Source: Endomicrobiia bacterium
Lineage (GTDB): Bacteria; Elusimicrobiota; Endomicrobiia; DTEH01
Length of the DNA stretch: 64,000 nucleotides
Assembly (NCBI GenBank): GCA_039630545.1
Contig: JBCNUU010000005.1
Span: 1 to 64,000, forward strand
Reading direction: 5' to 3'
Position 1 is the stretch's first letter. Each line of letters starts with the position of its first letter. The position numbers were made by a program. Shown here one piece after another: positions 30,001 to 48,000 of the stretch.

Positions 30001-33000
30001 ATTCTCTCATAGTTTTTTTGTTTTTCTGCAAGGATTAATTTTATAAATTTTATACCTTCTTTTAGACTGTTAAAATCTTCTTTACCATGAACTTCTAAAA
30101 TATATATTTTGTCTTCATGATATTCAAGTAATTGATTAAAATCAATTTCCCCCTTTATAGGACTACGATGATCATGGAAATTTAAGATGTTATGAATGTG
30201 ATAACCTATTAGTTCTTTATTGTATACTTTAAAATACTTCTTGTGTGTTTCAACAAACCCAAGTTTTATTTGCACTTCTGCATGTCCAAAGTCATGCCAG
30301 TAGTATAGATATTTACTTTTGTAATACTGTAAAATTTCTTTTATTTCTTCAAAATTTGGTATTTCATGAGGAAAAAATCTTGTTTCCATGGCTAGAAATA
30401 CTTTTTTTTCTTCAGCATAAGGAATAATTTGATCTAACGAATCATATAAAAGTTCGAAGTATTTTTGTTTATTTGAGTTACGAGTAGTAAGCAGATCGGT
30501 TTTATATTTTGAAAACATTTGAGATTCAACACCAAATTCTACAGCAAATTTATAGAATTCAATCCCACTGGGTTGTGTGGGTATTTCACCTAAATGTAAA
30601 ATTACAACTTTTGCATTAAGATAATTTGCATAGTCTATTGTTCTTAAAGTATACTTTATGGCTAATTTTCTTTCATCTTCGTCTGTAGAAGTTAAAGAAA
30701 AAACATTAAAACCATATTTTCCATCAGGAATGTTTTCTACAGCAGGACAGAAATTATGAAGAGTTAGGATTTTTATTTCCTGGTTTTTTATATCTTCATA
30801 TATATCATTTACCCATTCCTTTGGTATGTCTGCATTTAATTCAAAGAAATTGACACCTAATTTTAATACATCCAATTTTAATTCCTTCCAAGAAATTTCT
30901 CTATTTATTATTTTTTTTGAAAAATAAGCAGTTGATATACCTAAATTCATATGTTTTTAGGGATGTATATATTGGTTATTAGTTTTTTTCTTCTATTTGT
31001 TGCTCTTCATTAGACTGAGAGTGCTTTTCATGTTTTACTTCTTCTGAAAAATTTTCAGTTTGCTTTGTCTCTTCAAAATTTTCTTCAACAAATTGTTCTA
31101 TAGGAGGTAAATCAGACAAAGAACTAAGGCCAAAGTATTTAAGAAACTCATTAGTTGTACCATAAAGCAAAGGTCTTCCTGGTACTTCTTTTCTTCCTAT
31201 AATTTTAATAAGTTTTCTTTCCAGAAGTGTTTCTATTACAGCTGTACAGTCAACACCTCGAGTTTCTTCTATTTCAGCTTTTGTAATGGGCTGTCTGTAT
31301 GCAATAATAGATAAAGTTTCAACTGCTGCTGGTGAAAGTCTTAGGAGAGTTCTATCTCTGTAAAGTCGGCGTACATATTCAGCGTATATGGGTTTTGTTG
31401 CCATCTGATAACCTTCTGCTATTTTTCTGATTTCTATTGCTGAATTTTTAAGATAATAAATTGTAAGCTCAGCAATTATTTCCTCTACCAACTCTTCGTT
31501 GACTTCTTGTTCACCTATAAGTTCTACAATCTTTTTGCTACTTAATGGCTTATCCGTAATAAATATCAATGTCTCTATAATTCCTTTTAGAAAATCTCTT
31601 TCCATAATAAAAATTACTTCTATTTTTTAAGAATATCTTTTAAAAATTTAATTGTATCTGGATGAGCTACAACTACAATATCACATCCAGCTTGTAAGTA
31701 CCCCAACGAAGTAGATATTTCCCAAATTTTTGCTCTCTCTTTTGTATCTTTTCCCCAGTTTGGCTCTTCCTCAGGAGTTGCTTTAGCTTCTTTTGTTTTC
31801 CATGTTTCTTCAGCAATTAAGTTTATTACAGGTGTTGCCATTACTTTATCACCCTGTAAGCCAGCAAGGCGACATCTTTCAATAATTGAATATGAGTATT
31901 CAAAACCATATCCCAGTCCTCCCGTAGTATGATGCATTACAATTCTGTCAAGTGGTATGCCTGTATCGTTAATCAAAATATTGAGTTGCTTAGCTAAGTT
32001 TATATCTAATGGCGTTTCTGCTATTATTGAGTGTCCACAAGAAAATGCAGATAAAGAAATTGTTTTGTAATTTTCTTTTACAGCCATACCCACAAGTATT
32101 TTTTCGTTTTTTGTCAATTCGCATACTAAAGGTAGAATTTCCATGTCTTTTTCTATATGATTACAACCTAAAATTATTAAAGGTAATTGAGTTGTGTTTA
32201 AAACTTCTGGAATGAAGTTTATTAAATATTCTCTGGAGTTATTTTTTGTGTCAGGATGGCAAGAAAACAATCTTATGCATATAGCATCTGGTTCGGTTTT
32301 TTCTATTTCTTTTATCCATTTTAGAGGGTCTGTGACTATATCTTTAAATTCTTCATAAAATGTAGGCCATAGATCTTCAGGTAAATAATCCAGAACTTCA
32401 GCTGCTATTATGGGTTTGTTAGGAATGTTTCCTTCAAATTCTAGAAAAGGTAGAGTTTTTTGTCCTCCAACTTTGATGACTTTGTTGCGACTTCCTCCTT
32501 CTTCTTTTGTAGCACCAATTGTAACTGTGAATATTTCTGATGAGTACTTTTCTATCAAGTATTCCACCATACAATTTAAATTCTACTTTTTGTTAACTAA
32601 AAATTTTATATCCTTCTATATGAAACCCAAGTTGAATTTTTAATAGATGTAGTAAATTTTTTGCTAAAATGCAAGTTGTTACAGAACCTACTCCCCCCGG
32701 AACTGGTGTAATAAAAGATGCTTTCTTAGAAACATTTTCAAAATCAACATCTCCTACAATTTTAGTTTTTGGTTTACCTGATTTTTCATCAATGATTTCT
32801 TTACCATTTTCATCTAAAACTTTTATTTTATTTATCCCCACATCTATAACTACAGCTCCATCTTTTACCATATCAGCAGTAATAAAGTTTGGTTTTCCCA
32901 CTGCTACAATTAGAATTTCAGCACGTCTTGTGTGTTCTTGTAGATTTTTGGTTGCAATGTGGCATACAGTTGGAGTTGCTGAACTTAAAAGTGAAGACAG

Positions 33001-45000: not shown

Positions 45001-48000
45001 CTTCCTTTCCAGGAAGGTTCATGAGAAATTGAAAGATGTGTTTTAGCCATACAAATAGGAAGTTTATCCCAACCAAGTTCTGTATATAATTTTATTTTTT
45101 CCTCTGCAACAGAAGAATATTGAACCTCTTTTGCACCGTAAATTTTTGTAGCTATAATGTGAATTTTATCTTTAATAGGGATATCTAATGGATAAAGAAA
45201 TTTAAAATTATTAGGTTTATTAGCTGTTTTAATTACTGCAAAAGCAAGATCTTTGCCTCCCTCTCCACCTTTTGCCCATACTTCAGAGACTACTGCTTCT
45301 TCTGCACCAAAATCTTTTGCACGCTTTTGTATTAAAGAAATTTCTTTGTCTGTGTCGGTTGTAAATCTATTTATTGCTACCACTACTGGAACTCCGTGAA
45401 TTAGAACATTTTCTATTTGTTTTTCTAAATTACATAACCCTTCTTCTAATAGTTGTAAATTTTCTTTTGTTAACTCTTCAGGTAAAGGTTTTCCTGGAAG
45501 AACATTGATTTTTCCAGAATGCATCTTCAAAGCTCTCACTGTAGCTACCATTACTACACAGTGTGGTGTAAGTCCTGAATAACGGCATTTTATATTCATA
45601 AATTTTTCCATACCACAGTCTGCACCAAATCCGCTTTCTGTAACGACATATTCTGCAAGTTTGGTAGCAATAAGATCAGCAAGTATTGAACTATTTCCAT
45701 GAGCAATGTTAGCAAAAGGTCCTGTATGAACAAACACTGGGGTGTATTCTGTTGTTTGTAGAAGGTTTGGTTTTATAGCATCCTTAAGTAATACAGTCAT
45801 TGCTCCAGCAACTTTAATATCTTCTGCTGTTACGGGTTTATTATCGTAAGTAAATGCTACTACTACTTTAGAAAGACGTTTCCTGAGATCTTGTAAGGAA
45901 TTAGTTAACGCAAGAATCGCCATAAGTTCTGATGTACCAGAAATATCAAAACCACTACTCAAAGGCATTCCGTCATCACTTACAGGACCTAATCCAATTA
46001 TAATATTTCTTAAAAAACGTTCTGAAACATCCATTACATACCGCCATAAGATTTTTTTGGGGTCAATTGGAATTTGTCGTCTATAGAGTGCATTATTTAA
46101 AAATGCCATACATAAATTATGGGCTATAGAAACCGCATGTGTATCACCTGTAAGATGGAGATTGAAATCCTCCATGGGAAGAACTTGTGAATAGCCACCT
46201 CCTGCAGCTCCACCTTTTATACCAAACACTGGTCCCAAAGATGGTTGTCTTATACAGGTAAAAACTTTTTTTCCTAACTTTGCCAGTCCTAAAGAAAGTC
46301 CAATTGTAGTAATGGTTTTCCCTTCTCCAAGAGGAGTAGGTGTTATCGCCGTTACATCAATATATTTTGCTTGAGGGTTATTTTTAATTCTTTCTAAAAT
46401 TTCAAGTTTCACTTTAGCTTTATAGTCTCCATAGAGCTCCAATTCAGAAGGTAGTATTCCCGCCAGTTTAGCAATTTCAGTTATAGGTTTTAGTTTTATA
46501 CTCTGTGCTATTTCTATATCTGATGGAACTTCATAGTATGCCATAAGTTTTCACCTCCTTTTATTTTTTACGATAAGCCTCTAAGAACGACTCACAATAT
46601 AATTGTTTACCCAAAAGGAGTTCCGCAGTGATTATTGCATCCATAAGTTCTTTATCTAACGGATTTAAAATTGCACTATCTAAACCAGAAGCCAATGCTA
46701 ACACTACATAAGTTCGGTCAATTAAATTTCTATATTTTGTTCCTTGAGAAACATTAGATAATCCTAATAGAGTTTTAGGAGGTGGATCTGATACAAGTTT
46801 TATTTGCTGGATTACTTCTAATACGGCAGTAGCATTCTGTTGTGATACATTAATTGGTAGGATTACAGGATCTATAAATAAATTTTCTACATCATATTCG
46901 TACTCAACACATTTTTGAATAATGTTTGTTACTAACTCCATTTTACCTTGAACATCCTGTGGAACACCTGACTTTGAAATAGTTAGTGCTATAAGTTTCG
47001 CATTATATTTTTTTGCCATTGGGATGTAGATATCTAACTTTTCAAAGTCAGCATGTGTAGAATTTATGAAACATCCTTCTCCTTTGCTTGCTGTTTTGAG
47101 ACCTTCTTGCATTATTTCAGGTTTAGTAGTATCAATTGCTAAAGGTGCATCAGTTATTTCTCTAATAGTATTAATAAGCCACAACATATCTTCTAACGGA
47201 TTTATAGATTCAGGTCCTACATTTACATCCAGCGCATTAGCTCCTGCCTCAAGCTGTTGTTTAGCAAGCTCTTTAATAAACTCCGAGTTACGTTCTTTTA
47301 TTGCCTGGTTTACTTTTTTAAACATTCCGTTTATTTTTTCTCCTATGATATACATTTTGATTGTTCCTCCGTAGTCCGTGAGGATATTATAATATTATAA
47401 TGAATCTAAAAACTTACAATAAATTTGATAATCTTTGTAATCAAACAAAACAAATCTAACAATTTTAATGCTATTTAATTCTTTTGAAATAGATTTTATA
47501 GTGTCAAATACAACTTTTGTTGCTTCCTCTATAGGATATCCAAATGCTCCTGTGGAGATAGCAGGAAATGCAATAGAGGTTATTTTATTTTTTTCAGCAA
47601 CTTTTAAGACATTAATGTAACATTTTGCTAAAAGTTTATCCTCCGGTTTATCAATACCATATCTAGGACCTAGACAATGGATAATATATTTATTTGGTAA
47701 GTTATAAGCTTTGGTAATAACTGCTTCAGTGGGTTTTATTGGAGCATATTTTTTAGTTTCTTTTTCAAGTTCACTTCCAGCAGCTCGATGTATTGCACCA
47801 GCTACTCCTCCACCGGGTTTAAGCCATGCGTTTGCAGCATTTACAATTGCTTCAATATCAGGTTGTTTTGTAATGTCACCTTGGACACATTGGATTTTTA
47901 TTTTTTCTATTTGTTTTTCTTTCATTGTTTTTTGTTGCTAAAATATTTTTGTAAATATTGATAGTATTAAGGTCTTAAAAAATTTAAAATTATTAACATT

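Follow-up and report, generated by a model that had tools for sequence, protein, structure and literature searches.

An intact acetyl-CoA synthase cluster beside the remains of its CO dehydrogenase in an Endomicrobiia bacterium

Can an acetyl-CoA synthase (ACS) be kept, and for what use, once the CO dehydrogenase (CODH) gene next to it has decayed? The question is raised by the first 64,000 nucleotides of contig JBCNUU010000005.1 (the window; assembly GCA_039630545.1) from an uncultured Endomicrobiia bacterium (Elusimicrobiota), where an earlier note had described an intact acs cluster, a gene-free stretch and a decayed CODH. This description is confirmed by Pfam searches, open frames, tblastn and per-run assemblies. 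Every cluster gene lies on the - strand, and the Pfam families found by profile search match those of the note (Table 1). CODH and its nickel-insertion helper have decayed, ACS and its helpers are kept, and the lost genes are still visible in place.

Table 1. Genes and gene remains of the cluster, in window positions.
Feature	Position	Strand	Evidence
acsD, corrinoid iron-sulfur protein small subunit, intact, 316 aa	31620..32570	-	Pfam CdhD E 3.8e-31; NCBIfam NF003376 357 bits (cut-off 280)
folD, methylene-THF dehydrogenase/cyclohydrolase, intact	32593..33543	-	Pfam THF_DHG_CYH_C + THF_DHG_CYH
fchA-like cyclodeaminase/cyclohydrolase (FTCD_C), intact	36046..36675	-	Pfam FTCD_C E 1.9e-55
metF, methylene-THF reductase (MTHFR), intact	36688..37572	-	Pfam MTHFR E 9.9e-40
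metV-like small MTHFR subunit	37589..38188	-	Pfam DUF5981 (MTHFR C-terminal) E 3.5e-27
MetV-domain + RnfC-like flavoprotein, 665 aa	38197..40194	-	Pfam DUF5981 + RnfC_N + Complex1_51K + Fer4; NCBIfam rnfC subfamily 470 bits
acsB, acetyl-CoA synthase, intact, 738 aa	40243..42459	-	Pfam CODH_A_N + CdhC + ACS_CODH_B_C; NCBIfam NF040764 1040 bits (cut-off 800)
cooS/acsA pseudogene (Ni-CO dehydrogenase)	42503..43342	-	Prismane HMM + tblastn vs relatives' CooS
cooC pseudogene (CODH nickel-insertion ATPase)	43381..44039	-	tblastn vs relatives' CooC
radical SAM pseudogene, AmmeMemoRadiSam-type paralogue	44411..44740	-	Pfam Radical_SAM E 4e-8 + relatives' genes
fhs, formate-tetrahydrofolate ligase, intact	44835..46544	-	Pfam FTHFS E 2e-248
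acsE, methyl-THF:corrinoid protein methyltransferase, intact	46561..47355	-	Pfam Pterin_bind; NCBIfam NF005719 290 bits (cut-off 259)
second intact CooC-family ATPase, presumed AcsF type	49880..50602	-	Pfam AAA_31/CbiA; identity to G010 operon ATPase

The interval between fhs and acsB (42460-44834) contains no intact gene and is filled by the remains of three genes; stop-to-stop frames in it reach no more than 109, 89 and 89 aa, and its GC content falls to 0.22-0.27, compared with 0.30-0.37 in the flanks. By tblastn, the CooS of a relative (635 aa) can be traced from residue 424 to 611 in three frames at 43079-42503 (segments of 121, 18 and 56 aa with identities of 69%, 72% and 64%), interrupted by four in-frame stops and two frameshifts. 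The remnant is larger than the 89 codons reported earlier. Faint N-terminal traces lie at 43342-43100, about 1 kb has been deleted internally, and the Prismane HMM matches 42747-43262 (six stops, with all three stop codons represented) and 42509-42670 (two stops). The cooC remnant, previously called by eye, is corroborated by tblastn with relatives' CooC, which aligns 44039-43381 with residues 28-244 of 253 (E 1e-42 to 1e-45); the frame is broken by stops and a frameshift, and the P-loop region is unrecognisable in this search. The radical SAM gene lacks its first ~126 codons (5′ truncation), with weaker traces reaching ~44110, and is 75% identical to residues 127-214 of the gene in one relative (G006) and 74% identical to that in another (G003). 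Its assignment to the AmmeMemoRadiSam type rests on the halves present in the relatives, which score 175 and 182 bits against TIGR04337, and three intact paralogues are located elsewhere in the genome.

This decay is real and is not an assembly artefact; the earlier note had raised sequencing errors as a possible cause. Logan contigs from three runs (two samples of one study, one possibly the source sample) cover 42300-45000 and differ from it by 4-5 bases and 2-4 gap letters, and the three per-run assemblies, at depths of 125x, 17x and 88x, reproduce the decayed stretch.

A family search and tblastn revealed no Prismane or CODH match elsewhere in the 95.5%-complete genome (82 contigs), as had been stated before, and neither the catalytic part of a formate dehydrogenase (FDH) nor the Mo-CODH family was found in it. 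PFL, Pta, Ack and AMP-forming acetyl-CoA synthetase were likewise not found in the genome; a gene of the ADP-forming acetyl-CoA synthetase type is present. AcsC (442 aa) and RACo (653 aa) are both intact on contig C5, where the earlier note had placed them. The 665-aa flavoprotein is probably an NADH-linked electron input to MTHFR, a role we assign by taking the MetFV-RnfC2 enzyme of Acetobacterium woodii as its counterpart. The second CooC-family ATPase, which we take to be AcsF, is 50% identical to an ATPase gene within the acsB-acsC-RACo-x-acsD operon of G010 and just 29-32% identical to cooC of G009 and G005; it is probably the ACS nickel insertase, and it is intact whereas the cooC of the same genome is dead. 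The cellulose fermenter proposed earlier is plausible, given five GH5-family matches in the genome; the runs with the locus are labelled hot-springs metagenome.

AcsB aligns over residues 11-738 to the ACS of Carboxydothermus hydrogenoformans (E 1.8e-217; best structural match 1ru3/7zkj), and its A-cluster motifs are complete (Cys quartet and Cys-Gly-Cys, Ni site intact); the enzyme is probably active. Three pairs without CODH give an acsB dN/dS of 0.080 (G000-G003, dS 1.15), 0.061 (G011-G017) and 0.065 (G010-G013), and the CODH-bearing pair G005-G001 gives 0.037; between CODH-less genomes the value is 0.06-0.08 at dS of 0.84-2.1. On the cooS pseudogene branch dN is 0.159, versus 0.034 and 0.053 on functional branches, an excess of ~0.12 that is based on 184 codons and an assumed tree. 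A drift of ~0.12 substitutions/site corresponds to about one fifth of the synonymous distance per branch that separates the genome from its nearest congener; a relative date can be given for the loss, as had been claimed, and "recently" is to be read with this qualification. Under simulation at 0.12 substitutions/site, 4.2 stops are expected in the cooS piece, which has 4; ~17 are expected in acsB and ~63 in the six ACS genes jointly, with none observed in either case. Simulated acsB was still open in 0 of 400 runs at 0.12 substitutions/site and in 1.25% of runs at 0.03. Since acsB has none of the ~17 expected stops, ACS has been retained by selection; the ACS genes were kept under purifying selection after CODH was lost. 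Decay, genome search and selection on acsB together uphold the view that the CO2-to-CO step is gone and that ACS persists without its CODH partner.

Of the 24 Elusimicrobiota genomes with AcsB and a completeness of at least 90%, 7 are without intact CODH, and CODH has been lost in at least three to four separate events among AcsB-bearing Elusimicrobiota. Six AcsB-bearing genomes besides the present one have no CODH found. The Ni site is kept in 8/8 AcsB from genomes without intact CODH found, genomes of doubtful status being left aside. In the class, FDH was found in 6 of 7 AcsB genomes that carry CODH and in 1 of 7 that lack it. Prismane occurs in two of the seven genus relatives (one a fragment at a contig end), correcting an earlier count of one, and CdhC in four of seven, as before. 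acs operons without CODH have endured across genus boundaries (G010 and G013; G011 and G017), and five genomes that are 96-99% complete (G010, G011, G013, G373 and G380) have intact acs genes and no CODH match. The CODH status of G006 and G017 is uncertain because their acsB lies at a contig edge. Within the family, erosion runs from the full pathway through absence of CODH to an acsB pseudogene adjoining an intact acsD (G008) and to absence of acsB with fhs and MTHFR kept (G004), and the CODH-less state may be a way-station in this series. Both members lacking a working acsB retain fhs, and MTHFR is found in 59 of 70 class genomes; as Fhs and MTHFR persist without ACS, the folate branch serves biosynthesis whether or not ACS is present.

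The gene order in G006 is fhs, FDH module, radical SAM gene, with an IS200-like gene at this junction, and in G003 a radical SAM gene is followed by acsB. The ancestor would have carried a full Wood-Ljungdahl cluster in the approximate order fhs, FDH module, radical SAM, cooC, cooS, acsB. If the G006 order is ancestral, a deletion may have taken out the whole interval separating fhs from the mid-part of the radical SAM gene, in which G006 has its FDH module, and cooC and cooS would have been inactivated after that deletion, decaying in place. The remaining ACS system comprises AcsB, AcsCD, AcsE, RACo as reductive activator and a probable nickel ATPase of its own, of AcsF type; it would be linked to a folate branch fed by formate and made up of Fhs, FchA, FolD and MetFV with the RnfC-like flavoprotein. 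With no CODH and no inter-enzyme CO tunnel, free CO must pass between the A-cluster and its surroundings. External formate would be converted to methyl-THF with fermentation-derived NAD(P)H as reductant, and the methyl group would be combined with scavenged CO into acetyl-CoA, yielding ATP via the ADP-forming acetyl-CoA synthetase. If true, the pathway would be an electron sink without need for low-potential CO2 reduction. We infer ancestral gene order, substrates and flux direction, the last of which is unreadable in sequence; that a stand-alone ACS runs mainly forward on formate and CO, after loss of both CO2-reducing enzymes, is the account we tentatively favour, giving it as a whole, direction included, slightly less than an even chance.

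The evidence for intactness and selection applies equally if a functional stand-alone ACS mainly cleaves acetyl-CoA to methyl-THF, the Dehalococcoides-type supply of C1 units that the earlier note had proposed. Methyl-THF would serve as C1 source or be oxidised to formate, Fhs then yielding ATP, and the free CO released would be removed by CO-oxidising neighbours. Acetyl-CoA synthesis from free CO is unfavourable at trace CO, and cleavage is thermodynamically the easier direction at low ambient CO. G011 keeps a CODH-less ACS and MTHFR with no Fhs match, a poor fit to a formate-fed pathway there, and its methyl-THF need not be formate-derived. Dehalococcoides mccartyi is, in the available text of PMC7918482 and PMC10327494, an experimentally studied CODH-less ACS giving methyl-THF and CO. 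Its need is absent here, however: MetF, GlyA, Fhs and full-length MetE are all present in the genome, versus no metF in D. mccartyi in the available text of PMC10327494, which weakens the rationale for acetyl-CoA cleavage. Moreover, CO-detoxifying enzymes of both types were looked for in the genome and not found, methyl oxidation would load a fermenter with extra reducing equivalents, and the tendency to lose FDH and CODH jointly agrees at least as well with a change to pre-reduced substrates. We consider cleavage as the main direction possible but doubtful.

It is improbable that ACS became useless with CODH and that acsB and its partners are a transitional relic next to decay in a shrinking genome. 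The stepwise erosion in the family would suit such a relic, as would the long AcsB branch of G380 (0.63 versus 0.088 for a CODH-bearing congener) and the somewhat faster CODH-docking N-terminal domain of AcsB (N- to C-terminal rate ratio of 1.4-1.95 in CODH-less versus 1.1-1.4 in CODH-bearing pairs), but the missing stops, the low dN/dS between CODH-less genomes, the intact Ni sites and the endurance of CODH-less operons across genera all argue against it. Least probable by far is ordinary CODH/ACS with a working CODH hidden in the ~4.5% of the genome that is unassembled, or carried by a strain variant. The incomplete, 82-contig assembly, the position of cooS in some relatives kilobases away from acsB and the uncertain status of G006 and G017 leave it some room; against it, both the cognate cooS and the maturase gene cooC are inactivated in place, the decayed form alone occurs in the three run assemblies (17-125x), and the five 96-99% complete relatives are likewise without a CODH match.

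The locus is a well-preserved example of an already known pathway type. The available text of Seymour et al. 2023 (PMC10066038) describes a partial Wood-Ljungdahl pathway without FDH and AcsA/CooS in 24 species of Omnitrophota (Velamenicoccus archaeovorus type) and proposes formate and CO as its substrates. The gene complement is identical, lacking FDH and AcsA/CooS and retaining ACS, the corrinoid protein genes and the folate branch; here the host belongs to Elusimicrobiota, class Endomicrobiia, the lost cooS and cooC remain as datable wreckage, and the Ni-binding Cys-Gly-Cys of AcsB is intact. The nearest AcsB relatives outside Endomicrobiia are Omnitrophota (62% identity), one of which groups with the present clade in the AcsB tree (99/98 support). 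With these species and D. mccartyi already published, and six further Elusimicrobiota genomes, the earlier claim of a second independent CODH-less ACS is not supported. In the available text of PMC10327494 and PMC7918482, citing Zhuang et al. 2014, D. mccartyi has ACS and corrinoid protein without acsA and FDH, and it must cleave acetyl-CoA for methyl-THF because metF is absent (PMC10327494). In both, ACS is decoupled from CO2 reduction and free CO is one of the metabolites; unlike that organohalide respirer, the present host is a candidate sugar-polymer fermenter with MetF-MetV-RnfC-like proteins, GlyA, Fhs and MetE. As in C. hydrogenoformans Z-2901, the CODH gene adjoining acsB is broken and ACS is intact; there, according to the available text of Wu et al. 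2005 (PMC1287953), cooS-III is frameshifted, a lesion attributed to laboratory passage in excess CO, four other CODHs are kept, and ACS is known to function as a monomer on free CO, this form predominating under excess CO. Here, the assembly yielded no other CODH, and the decay is natural and of long standing. Compared with canonical CODH/ACS (Moorella thermoacetica type), the CODH subunit is absent, and with it CO2 reduction and an internal CO channel from the C-cluster; the three-domain architecture and A-cluster motifs of AcsB are shared, as are AcsC, AcsD, AcsE, RACo and a nickel ATPase.

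The Wood-Ljungdahl cluster of this genome (G000; 1.60 Mb, 82 contigs, 95.5% complete, class Endomicrobiia) lies on contig C45 and contains a gap between acsB and fhs in which the longest stop-to-stop frame is 109 aa and GC falls to 0.22-0.27. Using as probes the intact genes of a genome of the same family (G009) and of three of the same genus (G005, G003 and G006), we find that the entire gap consists of three dead genes: the CO dehydrogenase (CODH) gene cooS, cooC and a radical SAM gene. A sequence scan gave 21 promoter-like sites in the gap (15.9 +/- 4.1 expected), a count from which we infer nothing on transcription, and three terminator-like sites, all within acsB or fhs.

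Features of the Wood-Ljungdahl cluster and of the pseudogenes in its gap
Feature	Position	Strand	Remark
acsD	31620-32570	-	cluster gene
folD	32593-33543	-	cluster gene
cation efflux, cupin and permease genes	between folD and fchA	-	three unrelated genes
fchA	36046-36675	-	
metF	36688-37572	-	
metV	37589-38188	-	
MetV-domain + RnfC-like flavoprotein	38197-40194	-	665 aa
acsB	40243-42459	-	
gap	between acsB and fhs		2.4 kb
cooS pseudogene	43079-42503		residues 424-611 of 635
cooS N-terminus	43342-43100		faint traces
cooC pseudogene	44039-43381		residues 28-244 of 253
radical SAM, extra trace	near 44180-44110		weak
radical SAM pseudogene	44719-44417		residues ~127-227
fhs	44835-46544	-	
acsE	46561-47355	-	
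CooC-family ATPase gene	49880-50602	-	

The surviving part of cooS is split over three frames (69% identity over 121 aa, 72% over 18 aa and 64% over 56 aa) and carries four in-frame stops and two frameshifts. Most of residues 1-423 are gone, and the faintness of what is left of the N-terminus indicates that about 1 kb of the gene has been deleted. The Prismane HMM, an independent line of evidence, matches the same two pieces as the relatives' CooS probes (model positions 324-439 and 459-512, with 8 stops) and has no further match anywhere in the genome; the remnant lacks the uninterrupted ~630-aa frame over the whole model that marks CooS/AcsA (TIGR01702/Prismane). R-Y-S-N-P replaces the relative's G-C-N-N-P in the surviving piece, and the cysteines of T-G-C and G-S-C-V-D-N-S-R are kept. 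We take the replaced cysteine to be a C-cluster ligand; the N-terminal C-cluster ligands fall in the deleted part. The cooC pseudogene contains stops and a frameshift, and its first 27 residues, the stretch of the G-K-G-G-S-G-K-T P-loop in G009, have no match in the gap, leaving no intact CooC frame with an N-terminal P-loop. The radical SAM pseudogene, of the AmmeMemoRadiSam family as judged from the intact gene halves of these two congeners, G006 and G003, has lost its first ~126 codons, including the region of the cluster-binding motif; three intact radical SAM paralogues are encoded elsewhere in the genome. Both the decayed CODH beside acsB described in the earlier note and the cooC remnant that it had called by eye are borne out by these matches to relatives.

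That note also worried that sequencing errors might mimic decay. Independent assemblies of three single runs extend across the gap with 4-5 base differences and few small indels (depths 125, 17 and 88), and an assembly artefact was rejected because the decayed stretch is reproduced in all three. The runs represent two samples of one study labelled as a hot-springs metagenome, one of them possibly the source of the genome, and none of the three is an RNA run. Indels relative to the window at 43060 (one base out), 43399 (A in) and 43954 (TAA in) lie inside the pseudogene stretch and fit population variation, as expected of unconstrained, neutral DNA. An alternative genetic code was likewise rejected: stops of all three kinds occur (3 TGA, 1 TAG and 2 TAA in one match), which excludes recoding, and the genes flanking the gap read through under table 11.

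Gene order in relatives suggests what may have stood here before. G009 has the order formate dehydrogenase (FDH), cooC, a ribosomal protein S18 paralogue, cooS, cooF, FAD/NAD oxidoreductase and acsB. The S18 paralogue (111 aa; L025:7982-8317, on a stretch of G009 DNA) lies between cooC and cooS, and a gene 72% identical to it sits on another G000 contig. Of cooF and the oxidoreductase, the genes that lie between cooS and acsB in both G009 and G005, no trace was found in G000. In G006, fhs is followed by an IS200-like gene, a molybdenum-cofactor gene, NuoE-like and NuoF-like genes, a 904-aa FDH and, at the contig end, the radical SAM gene. In this stretch (contig C64; L127:753-4706) the IS200-like transposase gene directly follows fhs, and the NuoF-like subunit comprises two overlapping frames (243 + 392 aa), either a frameshift or a real split. 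The radical SAM pseudogene of G000 starts at codon ~127, ~115 bp past fhs. The simplest reading, which assumes that the ancestral order was that of G006, would be that a deletion starting just past fhs and ending within the radical SAM gene removed the FDH module; consistent with this, the FDH catalytic part has no match in the G000 assembly. Pyruvate formate-lyase and the Mo-CODH large-subunit family have none there either. G003 has an intact radical SAM gene ~300 bp upstream of acsB, and a blastn search of the spacer for cooS remnants gave, the acsB start aside, chance-level matches only. An alignment of the sequences preceding acsB in four genomes, meant to place the deletion end, matched up nothing beyond the ribosome-binding site and the start region.

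The acetyl-CoA synthase (ACS) system itself is intact. AcsB is full length, with all three Pfam domains (CODH_A_N, CdhC and ACS_CODH_B_C) and a score of 1040 bits against NF040764 (curated equivalog cut-off 800), and its residues 11-738 align to solved ACS chains, best to that of C. hydrogenoformans. The C-x2-C-x8-C-x9-C stretch and S-C-G-C-F-E are conserved relative to the C. hydrogenoformans ACS and occur in 17/17 aligned Elusimicrobiota AcsB sequences; the former and the Cys-Gly-Cys are presumably the A-cluster ligands ([4Fe-4S] cube and nickel site). What AcsB lacks is a Ni-CODH subunit to form a complex and feed it CO, the only CODH gene being a pseudogene. Contig C5 encodes intact AcsC (442 aa) and RACo (653 aa), and AcsD and AcsE score above NCBIfam cut-offs. 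The CooC-family ATPase is 50% identical to the ATPase of the acs operon in G010, another class member, and only ~30% identical to the cooC products adjoining cooS in G009 and G005, indicating that the ACS-type maturase is intact and the CODH-type maturase dead. GlyA, full-length MetE and an ADP-forming acetyl-CoA synthetase-type gene are found elsewhere in the genome, which has no match to the MetH homocysteine domain, Ack, Pta or the AMP-forming synthetase N-domain.

We compared the surviving 184 alignable codons of the cooS pseudogene with G009 and G005. The dN values (0.193 and 0.212 for G000 against G009 and G005; 0.087 between the latter) resolve on a three-taxon tree into branches of 0.159 for the pseudogene and 0.034 and 0.053 for the functional genes, an excess of ~0.11-0.125 substitutions per site. 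A neutral simulation with the base composition of the gap, run at 0.12 substitutions per site, predicts 4.2 stops in the cooS piece (four observed). At the same drift, ~17 stops are predicted in acsB, 11 in acsC, 8 in acsD, 6 in acsE, 15 in the RACo gene and 6 in the ATPase gene, and none is observed in any of them. Simulated acsB remained open in 0 of 400 runs at 0.12 and in only 1.25% at 0.03. ACS has thus been kept by selection long after the death of CODH. These selection estimates draw on few codons, an assumed tree, dS near saturation and non-independent kin.

Pairwise dN/dS of acsB (NG86; dS is saturated for distant pairs)
Pair	CODH	dN/dS	dS
G000-G003	none in either	0.080	1.15
G003-G006	none in G003, uncertain in G006	0.072	0.84
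G011-G017	none in either	0.061	1.51
G010-G013	none in either	0.065	2.08
G005-G001	in both	0.037	0.74

At ~0.12, pseudogene drift falls well short of the synonymous distance per branch to G003 (~0.57), so the clean deletion in G003 is probably an event distinct from the decay in G000.

AcsB is encoded in 14/122 genomes of the class. CODH is present in seven of these (G005, G009, G014, G016, G019, G116 and, as a contig-end fragment, G001), is a pseudogene in G000 and was not found in six (G003, G006, G010, G011, G013 and G017); G003 is only 88% complete, and the status of G006 and G017 is uncertain, since in both the contig breaks off upstream of acsB. Among 332 genomes of the phylum at >=90% completeness there are 24 strong AcsB matches and one weak match, and intact CODH is missing from seven of the 24 (G000, G006, G010, G011, G013 and the phylum members G373 and G380). 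Directly upstream of acsB, G381 carries a cooC-cooS-cooF-oxidoreductase block that is missing from its congener G380. In an AcsB gene tree of 20 rows, G000, G003 and G006 group with G009, G380 pairs with G381, and G010, G013, G373, G011 and G017, from two families of one class and one genome outside it, form one clade (support 83/86) next to the CODH-bearing G016. These groupings imply at least three CODH losses, and a fourth if G000 and G003 lost it independently. Leaving aside the genomes of doubtful status, those that yielded no intact CODH keep the nickel site in 8/8 AcsB sequences. The FDH catalytic part is present in 6/7 CODH-bearing class genomes with AcsB and in 1/7 (G006) of those without intact CODH.

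Several features of these genomes were observed alongside. The acsB of G380 (L125:8920-11097) has a branch of 0.63 changes per site (0.088 in G381) and keeps the nickel-site motifs. In acs operons where CODH was not found, the acsB-acsC interval holds frames with no Pfam match, of 238 aa in G010 (L029:8557-9273) and 544 aa in G380 (L125:11728-13362). The genes upstream of acsB in G010, G013 and G011 are envelope and unrelated genes and give no hint of a replacement CO source. The acsB of G009 (L025:1838-4069) is 89-90% identical to those of G005 (L026:3705-5903) and G001 (L017:252-2450) in the C-terminal domain and 56-57% in the N-terminal part, an apparent mosaic that suggests recombination inside acsB; the C-terminal parts of cooS are 89% identical. 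The CooS match of G371, an AcsB-bearing phylum member (C81:162061-163950), contains one in-frame TGA, for which a selenocysteine, a sequencing error and a pseudogene at an early stage are candidate explanations. G000 has five GH5 'Cellulase' matches on contigs C12 and C1 (e.g. C12:253152-253886; frames of 410-783 aa), four of them strong, which would fit a polysaccharide-degrading lifestyle; the locus is held by hot-spring runs.

We are confident that the decay is genuine, that searches of the assembly turn up no CODH or FDH gene, that ACS has kept its catalytic equipment intact and that acsB has been under selection since the loss. ACS activity and its direction we infer. A CODH hidden elsewhere in the organism is very improbable. 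That the ACS genes are a decaying relic is unlikely, given open frames where neutral drift predicts many stops, although erosion in the family does go further: acsB is a pseudogene next to an intact acsD in G008 and is absent from G004, and both genomes keep fhs and MTHFR. In G008 (C4 near 114165-114716; L121:6154-6510) the matched part of the acsB pseudogene has two stops, acsD is 315 aa and folD is kept. G008 is a later stage of the same pathway erosion, and together with G004 it counts against simple stability of the CODH-less state.

The choice of direction is closer. We tentatively favour, at somewhat less than even confidence, a forward reaction in which ACS makes acetyl-CoA from formate and CO, because both CO2 reductases tend to be lost together, the gene complement matches that published for an Omnitrophota type, the genome offers acetyl-CoA an ATP-yielding outlet and the motive for cleavage known from Dehalococcoides is missing. 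Cleavage of acetyl-CoA with release of CO is a serious rival, less probable than synthesis, that gains from thermodynamic grounds and from G011, where a CODH-less ACS occurs without Fhs; strong Fhs matches occur in 13/70 class genomes of >=90% completeness and MTHFR in 59/70. More broadly, we regard as possible, on balance doubtful, that CODH-free ACS working on free CO is a stable, repeatedly evolved system in Elusimicrobiota; the clade of G010, G013, G011, G017 and G373 may have a dedicated CODH-independent operon (acsB, acsC, RACo, acsF and acsD). In that case these small-genome fermenters would regularly exchange free CO with CO-producing or CO-oxidising neighbours, and G000 would document the point at which a coupled enzyme turned into an uncoupled one.

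An independent role for ACS on free CO has so far been argued mostly from gene absence in metagenome-assembled genomes. Because the lost genes remain visible, the G000 locus supports it with unusually direct evidence and provides concrete test targets: AcsB, the AcsF-type ATPase and the corrinoid protein. Surveys often call the carbonyl branch present once most subunits are found, so genomes like G000 are read as CO2-fixing acetogens though they have no CO2 reduction at either entry point. The main Elusimicrobia survey scored the branch complete at 4/5 subunits (10.1101/765248), a rule that would hide the CODH-less state. The literature searched on acsB without acsA/CODH contained no description of a CODH-less ACS in Elusimicrobiota, and the listed titles and abstract openings on 'Endomicrobia' and 'Wood-Ljungdahl' had nothing on it; a term search of the main text of the Endomicrobiaceae genome paper gave no mention of CO dehydrogenase, formate or tetrahydrofolate (PMC11257099).

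Related states are known from other bacteria. In C. hydrogenoformans Z-2901, cooS-III is frameshifted and ACS is mainly monomeric in excess CO (PMC1287953). D. mccartyi lacks acsA, metF and fdhF (PMC10327494) and releases CO by acetyl-CoA cleavage (PMC7918482). The analogy with Dehalococcoides drawn in the earlier note holds for the shared absence of acsA and fdh; it fails at metF, the lack of which makes D. mccartyi derive methyl-THF from acetyl-CoA cleavage, whereas G000 has MetF, MetV, the RnfC-like partner, GlyA and MetE. The partial Wood-Ljungdahl pathway of Omnitrophota, proposed to run on external formate and CO (PMC10066038), lacks FDH and AcsA/CooS, as does G000 (CODH pseudogene only; 95.5% complete), and combines AcsB, AcsC, AcsD and AcsE with the folate branch (Fhs, FolD and MetF), all of which G000 also has. 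Rather than the second case of a CODH-less ACS that had been claimed, the G000 locus is a clean, datable example of a kind already known.
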